From: Psammoneis japonica
Lineage: Eukaryota
Assembly (NCBI GenBank): GCA_008632985.1
Contig: QPGO01000010.1
Span: 496,001 to 560,000, forward strand
Length of the DNA stretch: 64,000 nt
Direction: 5' to 3'
Below, one piece after another: positions 2,431 through 64,000 of this stretch; the stretch's first letter is position 1, and every line of letters begins with the position of its first letter. Below the pieces are notes generated by a model, which was not told where the DNA came from, made no database searches, and saw nothing but the letters and a program-made list of their open reading frames with translations. Made by a program: the position numbers and the translations under genes.

Positions 2431-2562
2431 TGACAATGTTCTCATCTACATTCATTGCTTGTTGACACAACCAACATGATGTGCACTGCTCTCAAGGCTC
2501 CTGTCCTTGCATCACATTCACACTGAGCATTGAAACTTTCATGGATCTTTCACCCACATGCA

Positions 2563-7350: not shown

Positions 7351-7439
7351 CACAATGCAGCTTTCCTGTGTCAGATGATCAAATGGAGGTTGGCACCACA
7401 TGCACCAAACACAGTGCTTCTGACTCATTTATGCACTCT

Positions 7440-7520
7440 GGGAGAAGGGCAGCTTCAACACCTGTTCAATGCACACCCCATGGGACAGATGGTTTCAAAC
7501 TCATCAAATGCACACCCCAG
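7440..7520 (+). repeat. Minisatellite cluster 2 (same TTCAACACC core)
   Basis: ggcagcttcaacacct (~7449) and gatggtttcaaactc (~7488), each followed by a TGCACACCCC-like tail. Confidence 0.55.
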
Positions 7521-9100: not shown

Positions 9101-9119
9101 GCGGAGTTTAGAAATTCGA

Positions 9120-10460
9120 GTCTGGCTTGCTGCTGTTGTTGGGGACAAGGCAAGATGGGGCCACAGTGCCACAAGATCAACCTTGCAATGCTCAACCACA
9201 GTTCTTAAAGTCTCTCTCCTGGGGCCCACCAGATGCTGCCAGCACCCTCATCCTGCAGTTGTCAGGTTTGGTGGCACTGTCATGGTGGGGTCCTTTCACT
9301 CCAGAGTTCTCAGGAAAGTCAAGTCTCTGTTGCTGCAGGGAGAAAGGTCACATGGGGCCACAACACCACAAGATCAACCTTGCAATGCTCAACCACACTT
9401 CTTGGAGTCTCACCCAGGGCCCACCAGACACCACCAGTGTCCTCAACTTGCTGTTGTCAGGTTTGTCAGCACTCCCCCTGCCATGGGGTCTTTTCACTCT
9501 GGAGCTGTGAAAGTGTCACATCTGCTGCTGTGGGGGAAATGTGACATGTGGCCACAAAACCACAAGATGATCAACCTTTCAATGCCCAACCCAACTTCAG
9601 CTTGCTGTTTTCAGGTTTGTTGGTGCCATCATGGGGTCCTTTCACTCTAGAGTTTGAAAACTCAAGTCTGCTGCTGTTGGGAACAAGGTGACATGGGGCC
9701 ACAATGCCACCAGATCAAACCCCAGCAATGCTCAGCCACAGTTCTTGGTCACATCTTGGGTCTGCCAGACACCACCAATGCCCTCAGCTTGCTGTTGAAA
9801 TTGGGTCACAACTCCACAAGATCAACCTTGCAATGCTCAACCACAGCTCTCAAAGTGTCACCTGGGGTCTGCCAGAGACCACAAACACTCTCAGCTTGCA
9901 GTTGTCAGGTTGGTTTGCACCATCATGGATCCTTTCACTCTGGAGTTGGGAAGTTCAAGTTTGCTTCTGTTGCAAACAAGTTGACATGGGGCCACAAGAA
10001 CGCCACAAGATCAACCCTGTCAACAACCAACAAGAGTTCTCAAAATGTCACCTGGGGGGTCTGCCAGATGCTGCCATTGTCCTCAACTTGCAACTGTTGG
10101 GTTGGTTGGTGCCACCATGTGACCCTTTCACTGTAGAGTTGGGAAGTTCAAGCACACAAAACAGGCCTTGCACTGCTCAACCATGGTTGCTGCAGAGTCA
10201 CCTGGGGTTCACAAGAGACCAGAAGTTTGATGTGTGCTTCTGGCAGATGGGACACAACAGGGTGCCACAAATGCTCAACACTGGTCTCACACACTTGCTC
10301 AGTTCAAACCACTGTTCTCAAAGTGTTGCCTGGGGTCTGCCAGAGACCACACCAGTGCCCTCAGCCTGCTGTTGCTTGTTGGGTTGGTTGGTGCCATTGT
10401 GGGGCCTCTTCACTCTGAAGTTGGTGGGAAGCTCAAGCCAGCACCAACTTGCTGGAGACA
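9120..10460 (+). repeat. Degenerate tandem repeat, ~8 units of 100-195 bp
   Basis: Anchor CACAAGATCAACCTTGCAATGCTCAACCAC-like at ~9171, 9368, 9562, 9711, 9816, 10005, 10155 (weaker ~10300), usually followed by CCTGGGG...CCAGA and CCTTTCACTC. Confidence 0.85.
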
Positions 10461-12199
10461 AGGTGACACAAGGGAGTCACACAACAGCCATGACCACATT
10501 GGCACACAGGCAACTGCTTGTTGAGCAGGAGAAGCATTGGCAGGAATTGACACAGCTGCAGTGCTCCATGTCTGTGGGGGCTGCTGCTCTGGCCCTTTGC
10601 TGGCTGGTGCACATTTGGCATGGTGGTGGCTGTGCTGACCCAGTCAAACTCTTGCTTGACCAGCTCCCTGTCTGTGACCACCTGCATGACCAACTCCACA
10701 AACCTTGTCTTGACCCAATGCCTGCAAGGGACAAAAGTTGTTGTGCATGTGCAGATCAGCAGCAAAGATCAGCTGTGCAGCAGCAAACTGCATGGTCTGA
10801 CACAAATGTGTGAAAATTTCATTCTTGACAAGGGCTGATTGAGGTTACAAAAATTGAGACATCAATCTTCTTTGAAAACAAATGTGCAGCGCATCTGGTT
10901 GAAACAATGTCTCAACATCTGACTGCCAAACAAATGAGAGCTCACAAGCAAAACACATCAGCAATGAAGACCAATGTAAAATGACTCATGCAAAAGTTGA
11001 TTCAACCAATTTAAAACTTCAAAAACAAGTGCAACAAAAGGATTTCTAAAAAAATGAGACTGCATGCAAAATGATGCAGGCAATGAGATTGCCAGGCACC
11101 AGCTGGCTTGGCTTGTGGCAAAAAGAGGCGCATCGCTGCCACACAAAACAACAAAAAAAGCACAGGATGCACCCAAGCATCCCACAAACAATGACAACAT
11201 TGCAAGAGGGCACCAACAAAGCCCATGACTCTGGACACACCAACACAAAGAAAGGCCATGGGGAAGGCAAGAGATTGGAAGTGCAGCACGGGAGCAGGCA
11301 GCTTGCAGCAAACAAAACAAACTGATGCTTCCCCTTGCACTTTTTTTGTTTCTTGAAACTCAGACAAGTTGACAAAAATGGCCAAGGACAAGAAGCAAAG
11401 TGCTGCAATGTCACACACAGGTGGGCAGAAACAACAGCATTGTGCCATGCTTGACAAAGAAAATGCACCAAACTGACAACTTCTTTGCTGTCTTCTGCCA
11501 GGGATTGCTCCAATGTGTCTCACAATGAAAAGCCGTCACAAAAACTGACTCTCTTTGAAGCACCGACAAATGAAACATGATGTGTTGCCAGTGCAGCCAA
11601 GAACACCAACAAGATGTGAGACAGACTGTTGTGAGAGGAGACAGTGGGGGAGACAGACAATGGGGCGGCAGCTTGAAGCACAAAAGGAGCAAAGGCAGCA
11701 GAATGAAGGGTGGAACAAGAGCATGCACCAAACATCAATCATTGCCAGGGTGGAAAGAAAATGATGTCATGGTTTGCTGGAAACCAAAACTGCAAAGTGC
11801 GCAGCACCAATTGACAAATGAATGAATCAAATTGTTGGTGTGTTCCAGCCGTCAATGAACAACAACACAATTGATGAGATTGACTTGGGTGCATGTGCAC
11901 AGAAATGAACCATGCATGTTTCATTCATTGTCATTTTCCACTCCACTGGCTTGGCCAACAATCAACACTCCAACACCCACAGTCGTTGCACTGTGGTTGA
12001 CTTTAAAATGAATCTTGTCAAAAGCCCAGCATGCACTGTTTGGAGACCACCAAATTTCCTTTAGCCTGGTTTCCCACTTTGCTGATTTGGTCAATTGTCA
12101 AATCAATTTGTTTGTGATCAGCTTGGTCAGAACACAGGCTTCTTGTCAAGCAAGCTTTAACCGCAAACAAGAGCAATCACATTTTCCAGATGAGGGGAT

Positions 12200-16262: not shown

Positions 16263-18121
16263 ATGATGACGCCCCACACTCCCACTTCCATACCTTCCAA
16301 AAGATCTGCTTCCGAAGAAGACGAAGTGTCAAAACCACTGTTCATTCGCAATCCGAATACGAACGATGTGCTCTTCGGGCGTGGCATACCGTGTCGAGAG
16401 CACAGTGGTTCTAAACAGTACCATGAAATATGCAAGCTATTCAGAGAAGAGTACAGATCAACGTCCAGTCGAGAGGCGAAGAACATCATTTCATACAAAA
16501 TTATTAACGCAATTGGTTCACTAGTTCCACCGGGAAGGTTTCTGCAGTTGATACCGAGGGAAGAAGCGAAGACGAAGGGAATATTCAAAAGCTGTCACGG
16601 CCATTTCAGTATCTGGGAGGAAATGGACAGTATCAGTGCTCTCACCAAAGTGAAGCAATCGCTTCGTGATATCTCTCGACAACGTGACCACTCGAGTTTC
16701 GCAACGCGTCCTATGACTATCACGTCTGTCGTCTCTAGTGCTGGTCATATTGGAAATCTTAACAGGCCCGTGCCAGTTACCTCCAATGTATCCATCCGCT
16801 CTTCACAAACTAACGAATGTAACAGCGATCAACTGGGTCAAACTGGAGAACGCGCTAACTCCCTGCAAGTGCAAACACGCATATCAAATTCTGAGAATGA
16901 GACATCGAACGCCTCTGGTACTGTAGATCGTTCGTCGATGGAAATCGAGAGACAGGATGATGAAGATGAAACAGCGGAAGATATATGGAAGGCAATGGCT
17001 ATGGATGATGCACCGAAAATTACGGAAGAAGAAATCAAGAGCGAGAAGGAATCACTAACGGAGGTAGAACGAATGTCAGTACTTCAAGATTTGTTTGGCA
17101 AATCCCTGAACATCAGTGCTCCTGCGAAGAAACGATTGAAACGATCTGACCCGGGCTCCATCACTAGTCTTTTGCTAGAAATGAGAGAGGCAATCGATCT
17201 GTTTCCTAAAGACGAGAAGTCAGCCGTTTTGGACGCCAGAACAAAGGCCGACGCGAGCGAGTTCAGCGACGATCGGCTAAAACAATTTCTTCTTCGAGAG
17301 GACATGGATCCTCAGGTACATCATTGTTATTTCTGTCGTCCTACTGCTTTGCTGCAATCCCATCTCACGGCCTTTCCTATCATTCCGCAGAAAGCTGCGC
17401 AGCGTTTTGTGACTTATTGGTCGGAGCGACGCCAGTTGTTTGGTCCAGAAAAATATTTAATGAACATGACGTTAGATGGAGCATTACGAGATGATTTGCC
17501 TACCCTCAAGGCTTGCATATTTTGTTATCTCCCTCGTCGTGATTCTTCGGGAAGGAGTTTGATCTTTATGGAGCAGTCTCGTCGGAACCCTGGTAAGCAC
17601 ACGCTGGATAGCATGGTGAGTATATCTGTACCTGCCGAGTTCTTGCGCTTAAGAACTTGGTTCAAAACTTACCTTCATTCCTTTTTTGTAAGCTACGAGC
17701 GTATTGGTATGTTCTTGAGACAGTTGTTAGGGTGAACACTGGAAAGGAAGCTGATTTCGTTGTCTTGACCAATGAGAAGAACTTGACAATCTGGGATTAT
17801 GATCAAAGGTTGCAGAAGCGTATATTAGAAATGGAGAACAGCATTTTTCCTGTTCGTCTGAAAGCCGTTCATGCATGCTTCATACCGAGGATTACACAGC
17901 TGCTGCTTAAGCCTATCTTATTTGCCGCCCTGAGCAAGAGAGAACGGCAGCGAATTGTCCTTCACGATGCAACAGAGAGCGAACTTCCGGAGGTGCTGGC
18001 AAGAGATTTTGGACTTCTCAGAGACATGCTGCCAACGGAAATGGGCGGAACAGTCAAGCTATGTGAGTGGATTGTAAGACAAGAAGCACTCGAATCAGAA
18101 GGCTCTGAGGAATGGCTTTAG
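16263..18121 (+). CDS. DUF6824-like N-terminal domain + CRAL-TRIO-like C-terminal domain protein, copy 1 (exons 16263-17315, 17391-17615, 17693-18121)
   Basis: NDVLFGRG...GRFL...KVKQSLRD is the diatom-expanded DUF6824 pattern; AA.RFV.YW..R..LFG, RD..GR, PVRLKAVH and LPTEMGG are CRAL-TRIO/Sec14-like. GT-AG introns are at the same positions in all three copies. Confidence 0.8.
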
Positions 18122-19280: not shown

Positions 19281-21173
19281 ATGACAATGATACAACACAC
19301 TCCGACCAAACGAGTCGCAAGAGTGGTATCTGAAGATGACGAAGGAGGGGTGAAACTCCAGGTCATTCGAAAGCTGAATAAGAACGATGTGCTCTTTGGG
19401 CGTGGCACCCGTTTTCGAGAGCACAGTGGTTCGAAGCAGTTTCGTGAAATTTGCCAGTTATTCATAGAAGAGTATTCCTCAACTACCAATCGAGAGACCA
19501 AGAATATTGTCTCATACAAAATCATTAATGCAATTGGTGCTCTAGATCCTCCGGGAAGGTTTCTGCAAATTGTCTCGGAGAAAGAGGCGAAGAAGAAAGG
19601 GCTTGTTCATAGCAACGGCGATTGCGACAACATCTGGCAGGAAATGAGCAGCAGCAGTGCTCTGAGAAAAGTGAAGCAATCGCTTCGTGATATCACTCGA
19701 CCTACGCATGCCAATGAACGAACAGATCTACAAACGACCTCCTCTGAGAACACCGTCGGTGTTGACCGCGAACGAAAGCCCGCTGAGTTGGAAAACTTGA
19801 GCTTGCCACAGTCAGTACATTTGATCAGCGCTGGTAGCTCTTCGGATACACAGTCTGATGCTGAAACGACGATAATTGCGGAGCTTGACCACGTTGGTCA
19901 CAAAAAAGAGGATCACAGTATTACGATGCCTCTGCAGACGCCTCTCAACTGTACAGGAGACGAGACATTGGGTCCTAGAGCTGCTGATCAATTGCTGGTG
20001 AAAAATGAAACCTCAAACGAATCTGATACAGCCGAAGACTTTTGGGAGGTAGCAGCGATGGAACACGTACCTAAATTTACGGAGGAGCAAGCTAAGAACG
20101 AAAGGGAATCTCTAACAGACGTCGAACGGGTTTCCATTCTCAGGGACTTGTTTGGGAAATTGGATGTCGGCTCCCCTGCTAAAAAGCGCGTGAAACGACC
20201 TGCACCGTGCTCAATAGACTCTCTTTTGAAAGAAATGCGAAATGAAATAGATCGTTTCCCTGCAGAAGAGAAGTCATCGGTTTTAGAAGCCGAATCAAAG
20301 GCAGACTCGAGTGAGTTCAGCGACGATCGCCTTAAACAGTTTCTCTTTCGAGAGGATATGGATCCTCAGGTATGTGCGGTTCCGCTGATGTCCTTCCACG
20401 CTTTTTTCAATGATCTCACGGCCTTCATCTTGCAATCCATATCCAAAAGCGAGCTGCGCAACGCTATGTGACTTACTGGTCGGAACGACGACGGTTGTTC
20501 GGTCCGGAGAAATATCTAATGAACATGACATTAGATGGAGCATTGCGCGATGATATTGTCACCCTCAAGGCTTGTATATTCACTTTCATCCCTCGTCGAG
20601 ATGCTTCAGGAAGGAGCCTTATCTACATGGAACAGTCTCGTCGAAATCCGGATGAACACACGCTAGATAGCGTGGTGAGTTTGCTTTTTGTCATCCCTTG
20701 CTTAGGAGTAATGATGAAATATTGCTCACCTGCTTGTCTCTCTTCCCTAGATGAGAGGTTATTGGTATGTGCTTGAAACAGTTACAAGAGAAAATTGGGG
20801 TAAAGAAGCTGTCTTTGTTGTGTTGAACTACGACAAGAACTTAACAATCTGGGACTATGATCAAAGAATGCAGCAGCGTGTACTAGAATTTGAACACAGC
20901 ATTTTTCCGGTCCGTCTCAAAGCGGTTCATACTTGCTATCTTCCGAGGATCGCATTGTTCATACTGAAGCCTGTTGTATATGCCGTCTTAGACAAGAGGG
21001 AACGGCAACGTTCCATCATTCACGATGCAACAGGCGACGAGCTCTGTGAGCTGTTGGCAAGAGACTATGGACTCTTCAAAGATATGTTGCCAACTGAAAT
21101 GGGTGGAACAGTCAAACTTCGCGAGTGGATTGCAAGACAGGAAGGAGTTGGATCAGAAGGATGCGAAAGCTGA
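19281..21173 (+). CDS. DUF6824-like + CRAL-TRIO-like protein, copy 2 (exons 19281-20369, 20450-20674, 20751-21173)
   Basis: Paralogous motifs and intron positions match copy 1. Confidence 0.8.
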
Positions 21174-25217: not shown

Positions 25218-26690
25218 CCCTTTGTGACATTTAAAGGCTGCAACACGTCGCCGTGATGCATCAACTCTCATTGGCAACTGTGTGTTGCACTCCTCCCCAT
25301 GTGTCGCGCGTCCATGCGGCTCTTTGCTGACGTGCGCTGACACTGCACGGTTTTGGCGGAACAGTGTGGGTGCACACGAAGGAACATGCAGAACTGCACA
25401 GAGTTTTTTCCGCATTCGACAGTGATCAACGTTGCTGCAGACAACTCCCACTCAGGGTTTCGAACCCCTGGCCTCCTGCCTGATGGTTGCGATGAACCAC
25501 TCCGCTGTGAATTCACAACGCAGCATGCATGCAGACAAAAGGTCATTTTTGTCACACCCTTTGTGACATTTAAAGGCTGCAACACGTTGCCGTGATGCAC
25601 TGGCTCTTGTCAGCAACTGCACATTGCACCAGCCCTCCTCTCTCTGCCCATCTCTTGCTGCTTCTCCAGCACCCAGCTTGCCTCTGCTTGTGCCATTGCC
25701 GCTCAGCACAAGCTCTGCCTTCCGCCCTGCCGCTTTCCTTTCTTGCCTTGTTGGCGCGCCCCTTGCTCCTGTGGCCACGCCTCCCTTGAAGCCTGCAACA
25801 ACAACACCTTTCCTTGCCAGCATGGCCGCAGATCAAAGCTGTCCAGCAGCTTTTCTTGTGGTGCCATCTTGATCTAATCTCTCAGATCCTGTGCTCTCTT
25901 GCCAAACTTTGTCGCTTGCCCAAGACAATGCTCACCTCAAGCATGTGAGCCTCGCCCCTTTCTGCTCACTCTTTCATTCCACCAAAGCTGGCATGATCTC
26001 CTCGCCCCTTTCAGCACCCCTTTCCACCCCCTTCATCATTGCTGCACCGCTGCTGATGTCGCTGTTCTCAAAGCTCCCTTGCTCTCCTCCCAGTCTTCCT
26101 CTCCTGTTTCAAGTGAGGTGTGCCACTCGAGCGCGAGGCCGAAGTTCCTTGGACCTTCCAACCCTTTGACAGACGGCTCCCTTGCTGTTGAGTCTCTCAA
26201 CAGTGATGGGATCTTTGTTCTCTCCTTTGCAGTTGATCACCTCAGAGGTCTTGGACTCTTCTGTTGTCAGCTCCTTTTCAGCTCTTTGCTCTCATCTGCT
26301 CCTTGTTCCCACCCCAAGACCCCTTGGACATTTCCTTCTTCTCGTCACAACTCCAATGCTTCCTGCTCAGCTTTTCTCCATGCCCCCTTGCTTTCCCTTT
26401 GGCTCCTGTCCTTCTTTCTGCTGACTTTGTTTGGAGTCGCCTCTCCAATGAGTGCTGTGGTCATGTGCACCCCTCTTCTTCCCTGCCCCAGTGGGCCATC
26501 CAAACCCTTGGCAGCAACGTCACCCATCGTTTTTCTTCCCATGCTCTGTGATGTTTCTCTTCCCTCCACACTGAATCCTCTCTGCCCCATTCCCTCACCA
26601 AGCACCCTGCACGCTTCGTCATGCATGTCCCTTCCACTCCTCTGCCTCAACAACAACTGCACATCAAAAGTTGTTGGTTCATGAGGCGCA
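25218..26690. mobile_element. TpA-depleted repeat domain 2 (unclassified element; 43 bp direct repeat with 339 bp period; strong pyrimidine skew on + strand)
   Basis: 25218-25260 matches 25557-25599 except one CG->TG change; TpA nearly absent while CpG is common. Confidence 0.55.
25446..25512 (-). pseudogene. tRNA-derived sequence (SINE head or tRNA pseudogene)
   Basis: Minus strand TTCACAGCGGAGTGGTTCATCGC...CAGGGGTTCGAAACCCTGAGTGGGA: A-box-like CAGCGGAGTGG (25507-25497) and B-box GGTTCGAAACC (25466-25456) within a T-arm-like hairpin; anticodon arm not intact. Confidence 0.5.
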
Positions 26691-27122
26691 TGCATTGTAA
26701 ATTGGACAATAAACTAGTTTGACCTTTCTAAACTCAGAGTGCAGAGAAAGGAATGGCGCAACAATCTCACCACAGCAGTGAAGGTATGAGCTACGAGTTC
26801 AAAATAATGTTGCCTTTTCAACGTATTGTCTCAGGCTACTAAAGCCTAAGATAGACCTCTCTCTAGAGCATTGCTTCTCAACACACAAGACATAACCCTT
26901 TCCACCATGCATGCATCATAGGAACGTATAAACTAATGTTACGATAAGACCTATGAAACCCACACTCTAGCGTCAACGCTACCTCGCCGTAGAGGTGTTA
27001 CCCTGTGTCCGCCTCTGTTGTGTTTTCAATCGATGCCCAAAGTCAATGCATGCAGCACAAGTAAGTGTCTCGGTTCGTAAGAAGCTCTTTTGCCTGAGAC
27101 ACACACGCATACCTATCTTTCT

Positions 27123-28346
27123 CTAGCGAGTGATCAAATCAGGATTCCACTTCATGACGGGTTCATCGTCCCGAGCCGTCAGAATCTCATAGCCCGTCTC
27201 GGTGACCAAGAATGTGTGTTCAAATTGGGCACTCCGCTTTCCGTCCGTGGTGACAGACGTCCAATTGTCTCCCCAGGTGACATCGGCGTGAACGCCCAAA
27301 TTAATCATGGGCTCCACGGTAAAGACGTGTCCGGGCCTCATGGTTCCCTTGGCCTTGTTCTTGTGATAGTGAGGGACATTGGGAGCGGTATGGAACAAAC
27401 TGCCAATGCCGTGTCCACAATAAGTCCGCACCACGCTGCACTTGTTCTTGGAGGCCACCTTGGAAATGCTGGTTCCCAAATCGCGGTAGAGCGTACCGGG
27501 ACGAATCATGTTGGCCGCGGTCGACAAGCAATCGAATGCTGTATTAACAAGCTTCTTGCCATCTTCGTCCACATTGCCGACACAAAAGGTCTCGTTCAAA
27601 TCACCATGATAGCCCCCCTTGTTGTAAGTTGTGACATCGATATTGACGATATCTCCGTCTTGCACTTCCCTGTAATCCGGAATGCCGTGACAAATAACTT
27701 CATTGACAGACGTGCATACACTTTTGGGAAAGTTATAATAGTTGAGAGGCGACGGATAGCAATCTCGTTCCATACAAGCTTCATGTACCACACGATCAAT
27801 CTCGTCCGTCGTGACACCTACGCGGAGTGCCTTGCCGGCAATATCCAACACTTCACGTCCCATACGACACGCATGCCTCAATCCCACTTCTCCATCCAGC
27901 TCTTCCTTCGTATAGACACGAATGGCATTGTTGGTGGTGCGGTCTCGTTGTTCGGAATCCGACACTCCCGACGGGTGGTTGGCATAATCGGGTTTGCGAA
28001 TGCGAGACGGGACCGTCCGACGAGGACTGTACAGCGTGGGACGGAGCGAACCCGTGAAACGAAAGTCCTTGGCCCAGCGGGGTTGACTGAGTTTTAGAGA
28101 GTCAGGCGCGGTCGTTTCACACGAGACTCCCGATTTAGGAGGAGTCTTGGAGTGTTGCTGATTTCCGAGAATCTGTTTCGCAAGACTGTGAATCGATTTA
28201 TGAGACGCATAATTGCTTTTGAAACAGGCCTGACTGCAAAAGTATGTTGGAGCAAGACCAAGCTGCATGCATTTGGGACACGCCAAACGCTGCTCGACGA
28301 CCTTATCGCATCCCGGTGAAGCACAAGCGCCGGCGTCCGGTGTCAT
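27123..28346 (-). CDS. MAP1: Methionine aminopeptidase 1 (cytosolic, N-terminal zinc finger)
   Basis: From MTPDAGACAS: CPKC...FCSQACFK zinc finger; CTSVNEVICHGIPD, DIVNIDVT, HGDLNET, GHGIG..FH, FTVEPMIN, SAQFEHT. Confidence 0.96.
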   Translation of the reverse strand: MTPDAGACASPGCDKVVEQRLACPKCMQLGLAPTYFCSQACFKSNYASHKSIHSLAKQILGNQQHSKTPPKSGVSCETTAPDSLKLSQPRWAKDFRFTGSLRPTLYSPRRTVPSRIRKPDYANHPSGVSDSEQRDRTTNNAIRVYTKEELDGEVGLRHACRMGREVLDIAGKALRVGVTTDEIDRVVHEACMERDCYPSPLNYYNFPKSVCTSVNEVICHGIPDYREVQDGDIVNIDVTTYNKGGYHGDLNETFCVGNVDEDGKKLVNTAFDCLSTAANMIRPGTLYRDLGTSISKVASKNKCSVVRTYCGHGIGSLFHTAPNVPHYHKNKAKGTMRPGHVFTVEPMINLGVHADVTWGDNWTSVTTDGKRSAQFEHTFLVTETGYEILTARDDEPVMKWNPDLITR

Positions 28347-29036
28347 GGTTGTTGCTTTCAGCTTGCTGTTTTTGCTGTGGTGTGTGGGGAGAGGAGACTG
28401 GAGAAAAAGGAGGGGGCGGCGCAGACAAAAAGGAGTTGAAAGCTTTTTGCGCGAGCAATTCACACACACACGAACACCCAAACAAAGAACCAGAGCAAAG
28501 AGGGGCCTTGCGATTGCTGCATGCCGCATGTAACATGCTCAAGAACCAAAAACTTGAGTGCATGTTATCAGAAATGTTGTTAGCAGGCTACTGTAGTCGA
28601 ACCTCTGTACAGTCGTTGTTGTTGCTTCGCATGAAATCATGCTGTTAAGCAATCACACGGCAGCCTCGCGAAATCACCGGAATCACACGAAATCACGCAC
28701 TCGCGCTGACACTCGCCTCGAAATCAAACTCCCCTCGGTTCGTGTACGAGTGTGGGAGAGACGATTCCGTTGAGCGGCGAGTGCAGATTACGCGAGGAAT
28801 CAAACAGCAACAGTGCAGGAGTTGTTTTTGTCAAGGGAATTCGTTGAGCACAAGTGTTGTTGCTGTTGTTGATTGTTGATTGTGGGCGTTTTTTTTGCAT
28901 GCCAATGACTGGCGCTCGCAACGGTCTGACATTTGTTTTTGAAGAATCGGTTCTTCACACATTTGTTGCTCTCACACTGAACATTGTGATTGTTGATTTT
29001 GCTCCACAACAGATTTGACAGTGCTGTTTGTGAAAG

Positions 29037-31466
29037 ATGAATTTTGAAGAAGAAAGTGGCTTTCATCTGCCTGATCATTCTTCAAGCAGCTCGTCTGAAG
29101 AAGAAGAAGAAGACAAACAAGATGCCCCGCCACTGATGCAAAACACGGAAATGGCAGTCAAATCTCTTGTGGGCTTGCACAACACATCAACATCCAATTC
29201 TGTTGCTCCACCTCAAGCTGGCTGCTTTGGCTGCAACGACAATGCTGATGGATGCCACGAATGTCAGGGGAGCAACGGGTCGTTTTCATGTGCCAATGCC
29301 AATGCACCAGCGGCACATGCAGCGGCACCAACAACAGCTGTGGCACCCACTGCTGCACCTGCTTTGGAGTGCAATGATGAGCAAATGTCGAGAGAACTTG
29401 CTGAAAGCCTTCACTGCGGGACGTGTTCTGGCTCAGATCTCACTGCGCAAGAAATGCCAAACATCAAGAAGGCTTCCAGTGTTTCAGCTTGGCATTTGAA
29501 TGCAAGAGATGAGTTGGAGGTGCACTTTTTTGCAACAATGGAAGAGTCAGGCAGTGAGAGGCTGCAGCATCTTCTTGAGGAAATTGAGTCGGAAGAGTCC
29601 GTTGAGACTGTGCGGGTTTTCTACAAGACACTTGCGGGAGAGAAGATGCAACACAAGCATGAGATTTTGAATTTCTGTCTTGTTCTCATTGTCCATTGCT
29701 GGCACAATGTAAAGACTGGTGAAATGCATGAGCCATCCATGTTCACCCAGTGCGCGAAGCAACTTTTTCAAACCTTTGCGAGACACGGCATTCAGCACAA
29801 GTGTGATGACAAGGAATTCAAACAGAACGGCGGCTGGTGCTCCATTTTGGAAGATGAATGGAAGAAGCAGCAAGAGGAGGACAGGTCTTTTGGCATTGGC
29901 AAGAACAAGTCACACGTCGACATCAGGGCAGATCAGAAGACAGCGGCAAAAATCTGTGAAGGCAAGTTTCGACCCATGGAAGACTGCGAAGACATGACAC
30001 CTGCTTTGATTTTTGTGCTGGGGCGCCATTTTGGGTTGCGTGGCAATGAGGAGATTGCCCATCTCACATGGGACAATGTGACAATGGGCAAGTGTGAATC
30101 TGGACCGGATGTCAGGAAGTTGCAAGTCAGGGTGCAACTTGATGAGGACAAAGTCAACAAACTGAGGATCAAGAGTCCCATGCTCCAAAAGCAGCTCCTC
30201 GATGGAATGCATGTTCGTGAAATGCCCATGAATCCCGTGTGTCTGCTCAAGCTCATTGCTGTGTGTCAGACTTGGTGTCCTCCGGATCAAGAGAGATTTT
30301 TGCACCAAGAGGTGATGAACAAGCAAAAGCAGCAGCACAAGCTGGATGGTCTGGCCTGTCTTGCAAGGCCTGGAAAGACTGCGGGTGTCATTGGCGTCAA
30401 TGTTGTTTTGGACAAAATGAAGTGCATTGCTCAGCTGCATGGTTTTGACAACTGGGAGCAAGCGACAAGCCACAGCAACCGTGCATTGATGACCACTTTG
30501 TTGGCATCTGCTGACTTGCACCCAAAAGAGATGCAAACTCGTGTGAGGCACAACTGGTCAGAGAGCCAGTTGCTGCATGTTCGTCAAAGTGATCTGCTTG
30601 ACCATCAAGTGCAGAACGCGCTGGCTGGGAATCAGGGCGCGTCGGTTCAGAGCTTGTTGGTTCAGGACGCATCGGTTCAGAATGCATCTGTTCAGAATGT
30701 GTCCGCTCAGAATGTGTCGGTTCAGGATGTGTCAGCTGCAGCCACCTTTGCGGGTGGAGCTTCTGTTCCAGCATCATCTGTGGCAACCTCAGAGTCCAAC
30801 AAGACTGCATCATTGAGCGATCATTCCGCGCCATCCTCGGAATTGGGGAGTTTGCACACAGAGAAAATGGAGCCAGAGTCTGCTGTTCAGATGCTGGAAT
30901 CTCAAGTTGCTGATCTAGAATCTGCCAATGCTGTGCTGAAGTTGAAAAACAATGACCTTTCTGAATCAACATCTTTGGTGGAAAAGGAAAATGCTGAGCT
31001 CCGGGAACTGGTCAACAAAATGAACATGAAAGATTCGATCATTTCTTTGGAGGATCGCGTTGGTCACTGCAATGACTCCATTGAGAAAATGAAGAGCTCT
31101 GTTGAGACAATGGACCAGAAGTGTTGTGACACCCAGAAAGAGACAGTGCAGCTGCAGTCGAATCATGCAACTTTGGAGTTGAAGCTTGAGACTGTGCAAG
31201 GAACAATTCAAAACCCATGTCTGACCATCAGCAACCAAGATCATCAAGAGATCCGCCATCTCAAGGACACCATGGCACAAGCAGATGTGAAATGTCAAAC
31301 CCTCAAAGACAAGGTTGCTCAATCTAAGCTCCAAGAAAAACAACTCTTGGGTGAGTTCATTTTTTGGAGGAGCGAATTCAAGACTTCAGGGGCGAGAAGA
31401 GGAGAGCCGCGGCGGGTGTGGGATGATGTGGGACAATGTTCTTTTGGACAAAATGGGGAAGGATGA
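29037..31466 (+). pseudogene. Tyrosine recombinase (Crypton/DUF3504-like) with C-terminal coiled coil; open frame but predicted catalytic Tyr reads His
   Basis: GEMHEPS (cf. Crypton G..YEP), FGLRG.EE (R at 30039), HSNR (30471-30482), RH.....SQLLH (CAT at 30576-30578 where Tyr is expected). Only one Tyr in 809 aa. Confidence 0.75.
30639..30728 (+). repeat. 15 bp coding tandem repeat x6 (ASVQN-like)
   Basis: gcgtcggttcagagc / ttgttggttcaggac / gcatcggttcagaat / gcatctgttcagaat / gtgtccgctcagaat / gtgtcggttcaggat. Confidence 0.9.
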
Positions 31467-32842
31467 TGTGACAGTGTCACCAGTGTGTTGGCATTGCCAG
31501 CATTTTAGTGTTGCCAGTGTTTTAACTTGCTGGACGGCAAACAATGCCACGATCCAAAAAGTGAGCTGTGGTGTGTTTCGAACATTGTCTTCCACACTGT
31601 TTGATGTTTGAATTTTGTCATTCACAGGTGTGTCTCGCATGTGTGATGCAATTCACCCTTTTGTGTAATTCTGAAAATGCCAGGCAATGACAATGTCGTT
31701 TGCAATCTTCAGGACCTCATGAATCTGAACACATGATGTGCTGACCAAGCATCTGGCCGTGGGGAGTTTGGGGTGGGGAGGAGGGGTCGGGAAAATTCGA
31801 GAACCTGATGGATTGCCCGACGTAAGTCCTGCGTGTTTTTCACATTGGCGAACTTCAACCGTGGTGATTTCTGGAATCACCGCGCTTGCCGTGTTGTGAT
31901 TCTGGAGTCGGTCACGGCTCCGGTCACCGCGCCAATTGCTCGCTGATTCTCACGACACGGCAAGTGTGTCATGGCCAAGACTCCAAGCCCAGCAAGGAGA
32001 GAACCCTCATCCTTGGCTGGACCGAGAGTCACCACGCAAAAGCAGGAGTGAACGGGTGAAGGAAGGATGACGGATGAATGACAGACAGATGATGGACAAG
32101 ACGAGCGAGCAAAACTGGCCCTGACCCTCATTGTCTGGCAGGTTGGGAGACACCACGGAACTGTCGGGGCGTCTCCAAGGAGATGCCAACGATGAAAATT
32201 GAAAACCCTCCACTCCCAATCCCGTCAGCACACAGCGAAAAGGGAGCCAATTGCTTGGCACCAGCGATTCCAAGCCTGGCCCCACATCCCAATTGCTTCA
32301 CCTGCTGGCGACCATTTTCATCGTGCCAACATCATGAGTCTACATCCGGCTGTGAACATTGCGGATGTGCTGGACCATCTCCACGAGTTGCATCGATGGA
32401 CTGGAGTCGCTTGCACTGTGCCATGTCATCGGAGTGCTGACAGCCGAGGCGGCGGCAGGGAATCCGTGGGATTCTCGCGTGACTGGTTTTTCGGTCATTG
32501 TTCGTGCACCAGTGAAATAATGTACTGTGATTTCACGTGGCTTCTACGTAACGAAAAGTCATAATGACCCTTTTGATCGTACATTCTACATGATTCCCGT
32601 ACAAAACCAATGACTGCACAGTTGCTGTTTGATTCCTTAACAAAATGACTTTGCAGTGAGACGGACAGACGACTATTCGTTACTGTAGGGCGGGCAGGCG
32701 GGGGCGCGCGCCAGCGAGGCGAAAAGCGAGCGTGCTCCAGTGCGCGCCAGCGGTCATACGTAGGATTAATACTGCATTCTACGTGGAAGGCACAACATAC
32801 CGTTTTCCAGTTTTTCTGCACATCAGGCATCAGGAGGCGACC

Positions 32843-35800
32843 ATGGCGTTGGATGAGTTTGATTTTGACGGTGATGCCAGTCTGATTGGATCGGCCACAT
32901 CCCTGTCCTCACCTTCCAAAAGTAGTGTGTCTTCGTCGTCATGTCGAAACTTCGGTAGAACTCGTACCAAACGTCAACGACAAAAAGCAAAGAATGCGGC
33001 ATTATCACAGAGTCAACAGAGCAGCAAAAGCGGAATTTATCAAGAAGAACAAGACGAATCGTTCTTGAGTCAAGAGAGCCGCGATAGCAGTATTATTAGT
33101 CGACAGAACGCTCTCATGGCGGTTCAGGAAAACATACAAGAAGATCAGTCGACTGCTAGTACATCGAACAGTCCAGAAAAGTCGGTACGGTTCTCGCTCT
33201 CACCCGAGAGGTCCGTGGGAGCGTCCACCGTTTCGTCTCTAACCACAACGCAGCAACCAAGACGAACAAAGAAAAGGAAAATAAGTCAAGACGAATCTAG
33301 CGTTGTCTCGTCGTTGCCCTCTTGTTCTCAGGACTCGTATGCGAGTGCTAGTTTTGATGCGGAAGATGACGTACAATGCGTTCAACAACAACAACAACAA
33401 GAAGATGCAGACTCTTGCTTAACTCAGAGCCCCAGAAGCAGCAGTAGTCGATCATCAAGTCGCACCGGATCTTATCGGTCATCTACTTCGTCTCTCCGTC
33501 GTCAACGTCGTCGTATTGGAAATTCAGCCTCTACATCGTGGATGAAATTTCATAGTCAACAACTACAAGAGCAACACTCGACGAAACCGATTCGCGGTGC
33601 GGGTATTGACGCCTTTGCGGTGCAGGATGCGGGATCCTTTCGAGAATTATTTGACGACTTGTCCTACAAAACGTCTGCCATTTCATCATTGAATAGCAGG
33701 GCAGCAGCGGGGGCCGCGGGGGAATTGGCTCTCGTAATGAGTAGCAAAAAGAACCGATCCATATTGTTTGCCAAGGGCAACACGGCGCTTTCGGCAGTGT
33801 TGGATGCAGTTGCTTGTGCATCTACTAGAGATACTGTGGAACAGACAAGCGACAAATCTGGAGAGAATCGAGCCAAGACGAGAACAGCTCGCAAAAACAC
33901 AAGCAGGGGCGCTTCAAGAAGCAAAAAGGGAAAGGCAGAGTTGGATTCGGCACTCGCTTCTACCGTACACTTTCTATCGTGGGATTGCACCACGAATCAA
34001 CAGAACTCTTCATCCTTTCCGTCTGCGGCGATGGCTCGGAATATTCGTACACAGCTTTTGCAGCACAAGGGTGCCATGAAGGGTATTTCAAACATGATTA
34101 TGGCTGATCCTATCGTTGCTAGCATTCTGCCTTCACGTGCTTCCGCAACAGAAGGAAACGAATCTTGTGAACTGAAACCAAAAGGCACCACTGATCCTTC
34201 GAAGGGAGATGAAGAACCACCATTATCGACCGAGAGAAAGAACGAAAATGCTGCTTCCACTTTTGGTAAATCAGAAACCCCTTCGCCCGCAAGACGCGAT
34301 CCAACTTCGGCTGGTCGAAGGCGCAAGAAACGGAGACGTTTGTTGTTCAACCAGGAAAGCTCGCTCGAACCCATCCCGGAACAAAACGAGGAGACTTGCA
34401 TTGATGCGTTCCAAGGTGGATGTTCCCAAATGAGCTTTACATCCCGGGACGATGACGACGAAAGCAGCAGCATGGGGTATTCGCCTCGAAAGCGATCCGC
34501 CCGTCGTGGCGACGGCGACGACGACTCTTCAGCTGCATCTGTCAACAGTTTGTCTGACCGTATCCAAAACAACTTGCGTACTCTGAGGGCCAAGGTTGTC
34601 TTTCCAGAAGAAACTGCAGACGAGACTGATTCGATACTGAAATCTGATTGCGCCCGTTGCAGTGAAGATTTGCAACTGTCAACGGATATCAGATTCCCTG
34701 GATTGGTTTCGTTGGATGCCATGAGCCGAATCATTGCCGGAAAAGAAGGAGACGAGGTTTCGTGCATGGATGAAGAGGAAGAGAACAATGGACGAAGCAG
34801 TCAAGATGAGCAACACATGAGTGAAGAGGAGGAGCATGCGAGGAATCCACTCTTGGTTACCAACCGATTCTTGCTGGAGAGTGGCTGCCTGCCACTCCTC
34901 GCTCGTGCCATGGCGGAGACGCTTGAAGCTGTCCTTATTGTCATTAGAGAAATACCACCTTGCGAGACGTGCCTGGGTCACCTGCAAAGCCGGGTCTCGA
35001 GGTTAGCGTCCGTGATTGACGGTGCGTGCTGCTTGTCGCCCGAGAACCGACGAGAGTTGTGCAAAGGTCCCGATGCGGGCTTGATCCCCAAGCTCTTGCT
35101 TGTGCTGAAAGCTTCAGCCTCCGATCGTTCTACACTACTTGACAGTAACGACGCTGCAGCGCTTTCGCCCGTGTTGGATGACATCGCACTGTCATCGATT
35201 CGGACACTCACGAGTCTTACTCATGAAAACCATGTGGCAGGTGATCAACTTATGCATTCGTACAATATCGACGCTGCTGATTCAGCCGGTGAACGACAAT
35301 GTGGTCTGTCTATGTTAGCGCAGATCTTGTACACGGCTGTAAATCATCGTCAAGATTTGGTTGGAAGCGGTGACCCGCAGTGCTGGAAAAAGTCGTCCGC
35401 ACAACAACACTGGTACGACCTTGTCATTTTCTGTCTCAATACCTTGACCAACGCTGTGGAAACCAAGGGCGTCAAAGGGTTTCTTGCTAGTCTAGAAATC
35501 TCTAGCATCAGCGGCGAACATGTCGCGGCGAGGATGGCTCTTTCTTGACGTGGTTGTCAAGGTGGCTTGTGGCGCAGACAACGACCTTTCGGGACGCCGT
35601 CATGGAAGGGAGCTTTGGGCAAAATACCAACTCGACTGATCGAGATTTAGAAAGACATGAGCAAGAGCACCTTGTCACAGCAGGAAATGGGTTTATTCTC
35701 CTAGCTTGCCTCATGACAGAGTCGCCATCAAGCCTTGGAAGCGACGCTACAGATCAGCAGGATTTGATGGCCCGGATTCGAAGTATTATTCTTTCGGAAA

Positions 35801-49170: not shown

Positions 49171-49908
49171 TTATCCACAAATCCTCTCCCACTCTTCACG
49201 TCCAATTCCAGGCCGGTAGGCTTCTCGAAAGTCCTGCCAGTCAATGCCATCAACACACCAAGCATTTCTAACCTTGATAAAAGACCAACCAATCGCTACA
49301 AGCAATTCATCTTTTTCTAGTGAACGAAGTCGGCACTCAATCCACGCTGTGCCATCCTCGTAGTCGATCGCCTCGGTAGGAAATACAATTTCATACGGAT
49401 TGTCTTCGAGGCCGACAAGAATCCGGAACTGATTGCTGGGTCGACTCATGGCTAGTTCCAAGGAGGAAGCTACTTTTGAAACTGGCGAATCCAGAGGAGC
49501 TCCCACAGATCGAAACAGAAACTCTCGCCATGGCGGGGTGGATGCGAGCAACAAGGTCGTAAAGCCAAAATCCTTACAGGGCGAGTGTGGCTGCTGAAGT
49601 CCATTCAAAAGTTCTGTCACCACTTCTTCTGGAGACAGGGCTATATTAGGAGGTCTCCGCTGTTGTTCTTCTGATATGATTGTCTCCACCGCTGACTTTC
49701 TCCGCCGAAAACGTTCGAGGTAAAAAGCATCCGGGTTGTCAAAAAGTACAGTGTGCTTTTGTCTCGTTCGCTTAGCGACCTTTGGTCTTTTTGACTCGAT
49801 ACAAAATGCATTTACTTTTCCTTTTGACTGTTTTTGATACAGTGCGCTGTACAAGGACAAGCAAAGAAACGTGAACACACGGTTACGGCTGTGACGACTC
49901 CTCCTCAT
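49171..49908 (-). CDS. Conserved hypothetical protein (~245 aa), possible signal/plastid presequence
   Basis: Likely start MRRSRHS at 49908; globular C-terminal half (W..DGIDWQDFRE.YRPGIGREEW). The longer upstream extension lies in mutated repeat DNA. Confidence 0.65.
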   Translation of the reverse strand: MRRSRHSRNRVFTFLCLSLYSALYQKQSKGKVNAFCIESKRPKVAKRTRQKHTVLFDNPDAFYLERFRRRKSAVETIISEEQQRRPPNIALSPEEVVTELLNGLQQPHSPCKDFGFTTLLLASTPPWREFLFRSVGAPLDSPVSKVASSLELAMSRPSNQFRILVGLEDNPYEIVFPTEAIDYEDGTAWIECRLRSLEKDELLVAIGWSFIKVRNAWCVDGIDWQDFREAYRPGIGREEWERICG

Positions 49909-50029
49909 CGTCGTGGGCCCAACCGTCTGTCGCATTCTGAGTTCGCAGGCTCGCAGGTCGCAGGCTCGCTGTCGCACAGAGCTGCTCACATTTTCGAGTG
50001 GAGAACGCCGCGCACCTCCTGGTTGATCG

Positions 50030-53000
50030 CTCTCCAGCAGGGCCAGGAGAGGTGGGAGTGACTGAGCTGTGTTGCAACCGGCAGCTTCCACATCTTGTTC
50101 TTGCTTGTTGGTCAATCTCTCCCTTGAGCAAGAGATCTGACTTCTTGATGAAGCCCTCAACTGAGGTGGAATGATCCCACCGCACACAATGTGCTCAACA
50201 TGTGTGGGCAGCTCTGCCTGCCTCTGAGTGGGCAATCATGGGGGTCTCCTTGATGCTGGCACTCAGTGACGGCAGCGCACATGAGCTTTGCACATCTGAC
50301 CAAAGCAAGCCCATGCCACTGGTGGCTGCATTTCAATTTGTCCAGCTTGGAAATTGTTGCCACGTGCATCTGAGAGCTGGGGGGTCAGAGATTGGCCACA
50401 TTTCCAGGATGTTGGTGGCAGAGGTCAGAGCAGCAACTTCAATGCTTTGCATTTGAGTGTGCAATGATGAGTTGCAATGACATGCTGAGCATTGAGCCTT
50501 GGCTGTGGTGATGACTCTTGAAGCTCCCACTTCTGTTGTTGTTGGAGAGCTTGGCATGTTGTGCTCTTGCCTCTTTTTGCTTTGTGCACCTGCAGCTGGT
50601 GCTGTGTTGCACTCTGCACCTTGGTTTCTGCTCCTTGACTCTGTCTCTTGCTTGCCAAACATCATGTCATTGAAAAGCATGAGCAGCCATGTGCAGATCC
50701 TCCTGTCCTTGTTGGATGTGCTCCATGTGGCTGTTGGAGCATCATCCAGCAGAGTGAGTGGGCAATGCAAGAAACCTGGAAGTGGGTCCATTGAGAAGAT
50801 GCTTCACATCCTGACCTGTTAAATCTGGTGAAACCTGACAAGTGAGTGTGCAATCATCACTGATCTTGCCAACCTTTTTTGTTTTGGTCATTTTGGAGCA
50901 AATCATCTGGTTCATGCAAACTGCATTGTGGCGTCAGCAGGCACCTTCGCACACAATGAGATCAAAGTTTGTTGTGAGAGCTTCCAGGCAAACCACAGCT
51001 GCCATGGCAACCAGGACAAGTGCAACAAGCAGCACAGGAAACCTTGGACAAGGACTCCTTTTTGGTGACATTGGCTTGTTGGCTCAACAGCAGCTGCGCA
51101 TGAGAAGGGCCAAGCACGTTGCAAACCAACAATCTGGGACACCAACAAGGTGCAATGACAAAAGGAGGTGTGCAACTTGGCTTGTGCTGCTGCAAATGTT
51201 TGTGAAGAGAGTTTTCTGTGCCTGCAGCATGCACTTGCACAAAAGCTGTGTGTTTCAGTGCCTGTGCTTCTTGCAAGAAATGTGGGAGTGACAAAGGAGG
51301 GAAAAAGAAGAAGAAGAAGACTGCTTTGGACCAGTCAATCCAGAAGATCTTGCTGCTGCAAATGACAACGAGAGCAACACTGATGTTGCAAAACAAAACC
51401 CTCCAACACAAACTGTGGAGCTGCAAAATCACAAGAACACAGCAACAAAAACTGAAAAGGAAATGTGGCAGGCTGTGGAAGAAGAGTGGGGCAAGAAGGA
51501 CACATTGCTGCAGAGCCCAAGTCCAAGGCAAAAAGAGAAGGTTGGCTCCTCAATCTTGCACATCTCATCCTCTCACTCCCCCCTGGAGCTTGGGCACAAT
51601 TGTTTTGTTCTGGTGCCAAAAATGTTGCTGAGTCATGTGTCTGTGGAATTTTCCCAGCATGTCAAAAAAACAGATGACAAATCACAGGGACATCAAGCAC
51701 AAAAGAAGGCTCCTGCATCACAGTGTGTTGCAGTGAGCTGCACCTGCTGGTGCAGCAGCACTGTCCTTTTTGGAAAGCTGCCGCCCCTGCAACAGCAAGA
51801 CATGCAGAGTTTGAGCCCTGCATGGCACAGCCTCTTCATGCATGAAATGTCAACCTCAGTGACTCTTGGTTGCTTGCAGCAAGAGGAGTTGTGCTGCAGA
51901 GTGCCAAGTTTGACTGTCCTTGTGCGCTGCTGCTGGGACTCAAACTCTGCATGTCCAGACCCATCTGTCATTGGAGCAGCAGTTTTTTTTTTCACAAAAG
52001 ACTGTCACAATTTCCAATCAATCAGATTTGTCACATCACAAGTGTGCCACTCTTTTGCTGCTTTGCTGTGTGGGGCAGTGCAAGGTGTGGCAGGCAGCAT
52101 GAGATGATTGTGCTTGCACCACACAGTGTTTTCAGTGCACACTCTCCTCTCCACCAAAACTGCACTGGATCACAAGCTGCAAAGGCCACCGCCAAGCTTG
52201 TCAAAGATTTGATGATGCCGAATGTGGACAAAAATGAGAATTGAGCAGAGAGCTCTTGCGGTGTCTGCTTCAGTCTGTGTGTTTTGGTTTTTTGTGCTTG
52301 TGTTGGCACGATCTCATGTGGGTGCCCAAAGGAAGTGCCAGATGACTGTAGACATCTGTCTTCTGTCTTTTGAGAGCTGTTTCTTTGAGACCACACAAGA
52401 CAGTTTTGTCAAATGACAAGAATCACATTGTTCTCATGTCATGTTCACCAAGACAACAAGACACAGCTGTTCAGCAAAGCACCCAATTTGGTGGTGAGTT
52501 TTTGAGTCAGTTGATCTGACCACATTTCAATGAAGCCAACGGCCAGACTGAAACCCTTCAAAAGCCACATTGTGTGTGTTGGGGCACACATGCGTTGGTC
52601 AATTTTTGAGAACATTCCCAGAAAGTTGGTTTGCCAAACATCAGTGCTTTGCATTTGAGTGTGCACCATGGTGAGCTGCAATGACATGCTGGTTTTTCTT
52701 GGACCTCAGCTGTTGTTGTTTAAGTTGGGTGGCAAACACCCCCCATTTGCTTTGGCTGTTTCTGCCGCACCACTCTGTCTTGATTTTTCTGCACTTTGAC
52801 TCTGCATCTTGCTTGCCAAACACCACATTGTTGAAAAGCAGCATGAGTGACAACAACACGCACAAGTTCTGTCATTGTTGAATGCTCCTGACATTTCTTG
52901 GGTTGTGGCTGGTGCATGCAAGGATCAACATCTGTGCGAATGTGCTTGCTGGTGGATGTCATGGCCAATGGCCAGCACTCAGATGATTGTCAGGCTTGCC

Positions 53001-63850: not shown

Positions 63851-64000
63851 ACATTGAACATGGGCACGCATCCAGCACAAAGCACAATCTACACTGAACA
63901 TTGTTGAACGTTGAACATTGAACCTTCACTGCGGCGGTTGTGGAGTCAGGGGGTCACATTGCCTCTCCTTTGGTTGTTACCGTTGTATTCTGCCTTGATT

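Follow-up and report, generated by a model that had tools for sequence, protein, structure and literature searches.

Fungal repeat-induced point mutation (RIP) changes CpA to TpA, raises TA and AT content and creates stop codons. A mutational process at TpA has been reported from mutation-accumulation lines of the chlorarachniophyte Bigelowiella natans, in which 231 of 302 nuclear single-nucleotide mutations were located in two integrated viral regions; 230 of these 231 were A>G or T>C, all at TpA, the mutations were found in 11 of 15 lines, TA-poor coding sequences were enriched in transposon domains and an ADAT2-like adenine deaminase was proposed (bioRxiv 10.64898/2026.01.13.699255). In the literature searched, this 2026 preprint was the only source found for a TpA-to-CpA/TpG process in foreign DNA, and no paper linking TpA loss to diatoms or stramenopiles was found. 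Cryptons are small DNA elements whose only gene encodes a tyrosine recombinase with the residues R-H-R-Y; the Pfam family DUF3504 was derived from their recombinases and CryptonS has been reported from the diatom Phaeodactylum tricornutum (Kojima and Jurka, 2011; PMC3212892). They are described as lacking terminal inverted repeats (TIRs) and as having terminal direct repeats of 4–6 bp (PMC13465315; PMC3212892). A stretch of 64,000 nucleotides from Psammoneis japonica (GenBank assembly GCA_008632985.1, contig QPGO01000010.1, positions 496,001 to 560,000, forward strand; hereafter the window) was analysed with respect to one open reading frame (ORF), 29037–31466 on the forward strand. With a probability of roughly 0.8, this ORF belongs to a dead copy of a DNA transposon of ∼3.8 kb that has one Cre-like tyrosine recombinase gene of the DUF3504/Crypton type between 37 nt TIRs, in a probable diatom host.

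The ORF comprises 809 codons and is terminated by TGA. Its own frame contains no internal stop, compared with 15–40 over the same span in each of the five other frames (14–39 TGA each, TAA/TAG at most two each), and the open frame is more than chance. The protein is colinear with the database relative P0001 over residues 7–532 (28% identity, E = 7e-58) with no frameshift, so that the start codon is probably the true one. The proposal that a lost original stop could be read from the C-terminus was rejected, the last 270 residues being without similarity to relatives. An earlier reading made from the letters of the window (the sequence-only reading) had counted a single Tyr in the frame, and the translation bears this out. 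The sole Tyr is residue 196, encoded by TAC at 29622–29624 (+) in the context TTCTACAA, where 18 of 23 relatives also have Tyr. Tyr thus makes up 0.1% of the protein versus 3.9% of the aligned relatives and 1.1–3.6% of the products of four neighbouring genes, and there is an excess of His (4.2%), Cys (3.3%) and Gln (7.0%).

Assignment of the ORF to the tyrosine recombinases was made from its relatives and from a predicted fold. A word-indexed protein search with the whole ORF returned nothing at E ≤ 1e-3. An exhaustive HMMER search with residues 150–545 returned 213 relatives at E ≤ 1e-3 and 76 at E ≤ 1e-10, the top one at E = 3.8e-47 and 32% identity. The profile check proposed in the sequence-only reading, for DUF3504 or the phage integrase fold, succeeded for the relatives and fell short for the protein itself: among 30 aligned relatives 14 matched DUF3504 (best 2.8e-10) and five matched Phage_integrase, while DUF3504, the sole Pfam match of the 809-residue ORF, scored 15.7 bits (E = 0.017), below the cut-off of 29.7. 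In the Atlas, the clusters nearest the recombinase carry DUF3504/Phage_integrase and come from molluscs and cnidarians, with one neighbour from Bacillariophyta. An AlphaFold model was calculated from the alignment of the relatives (pLDDT 85.3, pTM 0.77) and used as a query for Foldseek; the top 11 matches were Cre or its variant Tre (Cre E = 1.2e-4, probability 1.00), and in Foldseek and VIA-align these were followed by XerA, XerH, integron integrase, Tn1549 Int, the DUF3504 protein QRICH1 and lambda Int. Superposition on Cre/Tre with VIA-align gave Z scores of 18.1–19.4 and an r.m.s.d. of 3.7–4.2 for 284–294 residues of both domains, with model residues 1–384 spanning Cre residues 38–341. The predicted fold is that of a two-domain (core-binding plus catalytic) Cre-like tyrosine recombinase, and the other fold that would have spoken against the sequence-only reading did not appear. 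A single-sequence search of solved structures gave only chance-level matches (portal proteins, adenain). The family profile found Tn1549 Int and XerD weakly by sequence (E = 0.045–0.5), and in the profile alignment the T-x-H-x-x-R and R-H-...-Y motifs of the family fell on the HxxR and H...Y of Tn1549 Int. Identity to Cre of phage P1 and to the Tn1549 integrase is 10–14%; across both domains no structure matched better than these, whereas the present element is eukaryotic and has His at the nucleophile position.

The catalytic residues are present in order as R335 (GLRG), K372, H479-x-x-R482 and R504-H505 (30546–30551), all on the forward strand. Conservation was counted for each column over the listed relatives that cover it. 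Arg335, the first catalytic Arg (codon CGT, 30039–30041), is near-invariant, with Arg in 114 of 124; Lys372 (30150–30152) is Lys in 107 of 107; the HxxR box His479-x-x-Arg482 (30471–30482), which aligns to HAMR of Tn1549 Int, has His in 60 of 63 and Arg in 58 of 62; and His505 (30549–30551), the third conserved His, is His in 48 of 55. The sequence-only reading was right that R (GLRG), HxxR and H occur in order, and the columns are conserved. It had also placed the nucleophile at a CAT codon, 30576–30578, and this is indeed His514, within ...SESQLLHVRQSD. In the profile alignment this column falls on the Tyr of Tn1549 Int for which the Y379F entry has Phe. Tyr occupies it in 29 of 29 sequences of alignment A1 and in 50 of the 53 listed relatives, so that the His is no general trait of the homologues. 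The exceptions are P0061 (His), P0101 (Cys) and P0072 (Val), the first two of which are themselves Tyr-free, TA-stripped copies. Going from TAT to CAT takes one T-to-C change within a TA dinucleotide. Enzymes of this class (Cre, Flp, lambda Int) no longer cleave a strand once the nucleophile is lost. The copy is thus a tyrosine recombinase by descent and not a functional member. At the first catalytic Arg column, ten of the 124 listed relatives have Cys, Gln, His or Trp; these are the CpG-transition products of CGN codons, so CpG decay also kills copies of the family.

Tyr is missing from most of the columns in which the relatives usually carry it. Nine columns are Tyr in at least 50% of relatives, and at these the window protein has four His, three Cys, one Tyr and one Ser; at the 16 columns with Tyr in at least 30% of relatives it has five His, four Cys, one Tyr and six other residues. 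Since every Tyr codon holds TA, and TAY gives CAY or TGY, His and Cys are exactly the two products of a change from TA to CA or TG. Three database relatives are without any Tyr. When compared with the intact relative P0081, P0101 (63% identical) has His or Cys at all eight Tyr positions, with Cys at the nucleophile, and P0061 (53% identical) has His or Cys at seven of eight and Arg at one, with His at the nucleophile. P0081 and P0184 are 99% identical and differ at five positions (Y>H, Y>H, V>A, K>E and I>M), for each of which, as compared at the protein level, one T>C or A>G transition would suffice; the pair may be a snapshot of the process at work. P0081 and L001/P0184 come from different assemblies.

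The DNA of a subfamily was fetched through alignment A4 as 27 metagenome loci, most of which share a record-name prefix and are thus not independent; the subfamily is ∼25% identical to the window protein and not its closest kin. Three of these loci (L016–L018) have observed-to-expected ratios (obs/exp) of 0.01–0.03 for TA and 0.42–0.65 for CG. Their Tyr columns hold His or Cys at eight of eight positions in L016 and at seven of eight in L017 and L018, where the eighth is Arg. Loci with TA obs/exp of at least 0.3 retain the nucleophile Tyr, and L019 (TA 0.20) has His. In the pair L005 and L016, with 90% DNA identity, the 25 TA of L005 correspond to 13 CA, 11 TG and one TA that is kept, beside 16 CpG transitions. 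Related copies elsewhere thus show the conversion of TA to CA or TG at the DNA level. The claim of the sequence-only reading that TpA mutation inactivated the recombinase by missense is supported both by the Tyr columns (seven of nine His or Cys) and by this pair (24 of 25 TA changed). Across 23 related loci the loss of TA accompanies the loss of CpG (Spearman 0.47, p = 0.02, loci not independent).

Sister copies of the element were seen in contigs of run X1, the one DNA run found to contain it. The window has CA where these have TG at 29796/7, 30060/1 and 32262/3; at codon 254 the window has CAC (His) and a sister contig TGC (Cys), at a position where 16 of 24 relatives carry Tyr, and at 29803 a TGT of the window faces TAT in a sister contig. 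Such CA and TG alternatives are what independent hits on one ancestral TA leave, which places the hits after the copies separated.

Composition is patchy along the window. In ordinary gene-bearing DNA, obs/exp is ∼0.4–0.7 for TA and ∼1 for CG, and three TA-poor blocks (1150–12000, 28790–32517 and 49890–63900) have TA at 0.00–0.14 and CA and TG at 1.6–2.3; 75 TA are left in the 28.4 kb of the three blocks, versus 1117 in 28,004 nt of ordinary DNA. The tract that contains the ORF (28790–32517, without strand) holds nine TA in 3728 nt versus ∼149 expected at the ordinary 4.0%, with CpG about half depleted; profiled in 1 kb steps it gives TA 0.02–0.07, CA and TG 1.6–1.7 and CG 0.44–0.61. Within the ORF there are four TA in 2430 nt where ∼97 would be expected at ordinary density (obs/exp TA 0.03, CA 1.64, TG 1.68). 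The GC content of the element is ∼0.48–0.50. On the left the boundary of the tract is sharp: 28789 is the last ordinary TA, and the inverted repeat (IR) arm starts 6 nt on, at 28795.

Context preferences were estimated by comparing the residual TA of the three blocks with ordinary DNA, on the assumption that the blocks once had ordinary context frequencies. Retained versus ordinary counts were 21/42 for TTAA, 10/49 for TTAG, 9/48 for CTAA and 4/88 for CTAC, against 75/1117 for all contexts. None was retained in ATAT (0/81), GTAC (0/84), ATAC (0/72) or GTAT (0/81), i.e. 0 of 318 by ordinary counts. Surviving TA in the blocks is concentrated in TTAA (21 of 75), TTAG/CTAA and GTAA. The sequence-only reading had called the CTAC context of the surviving Tyr resistant-type. 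This label was rejected, as CTAC is kept no better than the average and it is TTAA that survives.

The whole element spans 3843 bp (28795–32637, +) and consists of an inverted repeat, the single recombinase ORF and an inverted repeat, as delimited by the IR arms, contig breaks and depth. The left arm (28795–28831, +) is 37 nt long and 86% complementary to the right arm (32601–32637, −), where a contig break and loose ends lie at 32636/32637. Within the window the 24 nt IR core is restricted to the two arms, and none of 100 shuffles contained it. No RNA run was listed for 28800–32300. Repetition of the unit was assessed from run X1, in which the depth was summed over all contigs of at least 85% likeness; it is ∼58–60 in the flanks, 150–260 over the ORF and 520–740 near the ends, or 3–12 times the flanks. 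In the same run a unique 4.2 kb contig starts exactly at 32637, another contig ends at 28783, four contigs match as far as 32636 and then run into unrelated sequence, and several skip internal stretches of the 3′ part of the element. The unit 28795–32637 is therefore a repeat family with more end copies than full-length copies, as is likewise found in autonomous transposons with deletion derivatives. Searches of the 64 kb window with the ORF block (tblastn and blastn) gave no second copy, the only other match being the inverted repeat. The distant subfamily of the metagenome loci is built alike: L021 has a perfect 19 nt inverted repeat with arms 3406 nt apart and L014 a 51 nt inverted repeat with arms 3395 nt apart; the two share the word TAGTACATT, which in ten of the 11 loci holding it is placed upstream in the + sense or downstream in the − sense.

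Comparison with the described systems gives a mixed picture. With Cryptons the element shares a single recombinase gene and the lack of a reverse transcriptase, and its protein is probably of the DUF3504 type; the 37 nt TIRs here, and the 19 and 51 nt arms in L021 and L014, set it apart from Crypton ends as these are described. The Crypton-type family suggested in the sequence-only reading is thus supported as a multi-copy, recombinase-only family with a fitting protein and fails at the ends; the best name is a Crypton-related recombinase transposon with inverted repeats. The DIRS and Ngaro retrotransposons have a reverse transcriptase beside the recombinase, whereas the 3843 bp unit has one long ORF, in whose 809 residues Pfam detected no reverse transcriptase match.

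As to the mutational pattern, the B. natans case agrees with the window in T/A-to-C/G changes at TpA only, on both strands, in sharp-edged foreign blocks and in TA-poor, CA/TG-rich tracts. The two cases differ in host (a chlorarachniophyte versus a probable diatom), in target (a single-copy giant-virus insert versus a multi-copy recombinase transposon), in extent (TA obs/exp 0.45 in the viral region versus 0.03 here) and in kind of evidence, since the mutations of B. natans were seen de novo and the process here is deduced from sequence comparison. Fungal RIP resembles it in that dense, context-dependent transitions strike only repeated or mobile DNA and destroy the element's genes. It runs in the opposite direction: here TA is depleted 16-fold, CA and TG are enriched, GC stays at ∼0.48–0.50 and no stops arise.

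In the mechanism that we propose, a local process would have changed TpA to CpA or TpG on both strands after the element had inserted, the simplest chemistry being deamination of A in TpA. This would have removed ∼30 Tyr codons, including that of Tyr514, and without Tyr514 no 3′-phosphotyrosyl link could form, so that the copy would be unable to move by itself. CpG decay would have gone on alongside, probably from cytosine methylation of the silenced copy. By analogy with the use of inverted sites by Cre-type enzymes, the recombinase of an intact relative would bind both inverted repeats and excise a circle with a palindromic joined-end site, which the same enzyme, on the Cre-type analogy, would re-integrate.

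The effect on reading frames follows from the genetic code. No stop codon contains C, and a change of A to G after T gives TGA only from TAA, so stripping never closes frames; TAA and TAG become CAA, CAG, TGG or TGA, so it tends to open them and spares only TGA. The open frame thus speaks only for a small number of CGA-to-TGA changes, other substitutions and indels, in keeping with a CpG content half lost. The absence of stops and frameshifts noted in the sequence-only reading stands (no internal stops, colinear with P0001); the conclusion drawn there that the copy is young does not follow, as TA-to-CA/TG changes cannot create stops, and the intact frame is weak evidence of youth. It is nevertheless reasonable to regard the element as younger than its two large TA-poor neighbour blocks.

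Four other explanations were weighed against a stripped, dead transposon copy. The ORF could be a domesticated host gene that lost the nucleophile and has since been retained by selection for binding DNA or protein, as with DUF3504 in KCTD1, ZMYM and QRICH1. Its open frame (no stops versus 15–40 in the other frames), its colinearity with relatives over residues 7–532 and the presence of QRICH1 among the fold matches (Z 12.9 over 164 residues) would fit such a history, and the domesticated proteins share with it the recombinase fold and the lack of a nucleophile Tyr. However, KCTD1, ZMYM2–4 and QRICH1 lack the second Arg too, and in most cases the His, and are host genes conserved in single copy (PMC3212892), whereas the present ORF keeps R, K, H, R and H in a repeated, IR-bounded and stripped unit. 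An open frame is in any case expected where TA changes to CA or TG create no stops. Loss of TA in the non-coding flanks and in the left inverted repeat marks the change as mutational and not adaptive, the retention of one Tyr among nine mostly-Tyr columns is unlike purifying selection, and no ortholog closer than ∼33% identity was found among 1.84 billion representatives; domestication is improbable. Still less credible is a TA-poor composition that was there from the start, whether from a TA-avoiding virus or genome source or through selection, with His514 native to a non-catalytic subfamily. The three database relatives that entirely lack Tyr could be taken for such a subfamily, but P0101 and P0061, which are 53–63% identical to P0081, put His or Cys at eight of eight and seven of eight of its Tyr, one Tyr-free relative has a 90%-identical DNA partner with TA intact, the window itself has His or Cys at seven of nine mostly-Tyr columns, and the sister contigs differ by CA versus TG at single sites.

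The same CA/TG differences bear on the level at which the process acts. ADAR-like A-to-I editing of double-stranded transcripts, copied back into DNA, would account for the TA context through the preference of ADAR for UA, with U before the edited A, as the discussion of the B. natans preprint points out. It would call for a reverse transcriptase, and the one long ORF matches only DUF3504 in Pfam. The strands are hit about equally (13 TA-to-CA versus 11 TA-to-TG changes between L005 and L016; five His versus four Cys at the Tyr columns of the window protein), the non-coding left end including the inverted repeat is stripped too, and the hits fell after the copies had separated. These observations point to a process at the DNA level, and RNA editing is very improbable. 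Harder to set aside, although unlikely, is a passive by-product of silent, methylated chromatin, such as error-prone repair or spontaneous damage at a modified TpA base, in place of targeted defence. Loss of TA goes with loss of CpG in the TA-poor blocks (CG obs/exp 0.03–0.6) as it does in the 23 related loci, and all TA-poor blocks look like repeats or decayed DNA. TA is nearly gone (0.01–0.07) where CpG is half lost, so the TA process was much faster than methyl-CpG decay, which a passive process would hardly produce; the block boundaries are sharp, and the process in B. natans was on in 11 of 15 lines only, which its authors read as regulated.

Several observations weigh against a stripped, dead transposon copy. 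The ancestral TAT at codon 514 is deduced from relatives that are 22–44% identical only. Depth and contig breaks were read from a single run, which is probably the one the assembly was made from, and transposition itself, as an empty site or a new insertion, was not seen. Tract and element do not coincide on the right, since 32518–32600, the last ∼120 nt inside that end, keeps eight TA, whereas on the left stripping reaches the very first base. CpG loss accompanies TA loss here, unlike in B. natans, and the two processes may differ. With regard to the right end, the stripped relative L017 regains ordinary TA near position 3250; a weak inverted repeat, whose right arm at 3351–3374 follows ∼100 nt later, may mark the end of that copy, and the stripping process may spare one element end.

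The loss of CpG beside TA suggests that stripped copies are also methylated, and a defence directed by the host against mobile DNA, as raised in the sequence-only reading, is plausible. A joint reading, which we put forward as tentative and short of an even chance, is that of a diatom defence that is RIP-like but opposite in direction. A nuclear activity, most simply an adenine deaminase, would act at TpA on both strands, most strongly in ATAT, GTAC and ATAC/GTAT and most weakly in TTAA; it would be directed at repeated transposons, with or downstream of cytosine methylation, and would erase Tyr codons together with TAA and TAG, leaving stop-free 'ghost' ORFs. Its victims would include undescribed Crypton-related recombinase transposons with TIRs. 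If this is true, then taken together with the Bigelowiella case TpA editing of invading DNA would be a widespread defence in algae with secondary plastids. The signature is nearly complete in transposon blocks of a probable diatom genome and is also present in metagenome relatives, so the process may occur widely and may act on transposons in addition to viruses; a mutational process of which little has been described would be extended to another major algal lineage and to transposons. Because all Tyr codons hold TA, a tyrosine recombinase can lose its nucleophile by missense while its frame stays open, and in annotation a long intact ORF in TA-free DNA should not be taken as a sign of function. 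With a Crypton-type protein between terminal inverted repeats, the element adds to the architectures known for eukaryotic recombinase transposons, and the context preferences and the link to CpG decay offer starting points for identifying the enzyme.

The two large TA-poor blocks of the window, 1150–12000 and 49890–63900, are nearly free of both TA and CG, with CA plus TG about doubled; CpG obs/exp is 0.02–0.4 and no frame exceeds ∼370 codons. None of 72 stop-to-stop ORFs of at least 110 residues in these blocks matched Pfam, and the element block has no similarity to either of them. The block 49890–63900 has internal repeats that are 70–78% identical over 1.1–1.8 kb. Both are probably older, more decayed mobile DNA that was hit by the TA process plus CpG decay. 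A region of 823 nt beside an assembly gap (25875–26698), just downstream of a methionine aminopeptidase gene, is free of TA and contains a 261-residue ORF without a Pfam match; it may be a fourth stripped block.

Two repeats are located inside the recombinase ORF. Six copies of a 15 nt tandem unit (repeat family D1; 30632–30736, +) encode an S-V-Q-type peptide repeat 3′ of the catalytic domain, and a 22 nt direct repeat (21 of 22 identical), at 30398–30419 and 31434–31455, lies 1036 nt apart in different frames, is unique in the window and was found in none of 100 shuffles. The relatives P0001, P0008, P0010 and P0017 of alignment A1 have a long coiled-coil tail with a Cys-x-x-x end (CCIM, CIIM, CNII and CNMM) that resembles a prenylation box, which is unexpected in a recombinase; the tail of the window protein is also coiled-coil-like, but has a different end. 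One contig joins 28679 to 32635 on opposite strands, with only 32 letters on the shorter side.

The genes of the window are long uninterrupted ORFs. Together with two DUF6824 genes and the Bacillariophyta neighbour of the recombinase in the Atlas, they make B. natans an unlikely source; the DUF6824 genes give the main lead, and no more than a lead, to a diatom host. The element sits between two divergent ones, in their shared upstream region. That at 27123–28529 (−) encodes a methionine aminopeptidase with a MYND-like zinc finger and has its start codon ∼270 nt from the element; that at 32732–35548 (+) is a 938-residue ORF with no Pfam match and a start codon ∼95 nt from the element. The genes at 16263–17735 and 19281–20471 are paralogous neighbours with DUF6824, for which no mention was found in the literature searched. 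They match this family at E = 2.7e-15 and 7.3e-17, and the Atlas clusters with DUF6824 are mostly from Bacillariophyta.

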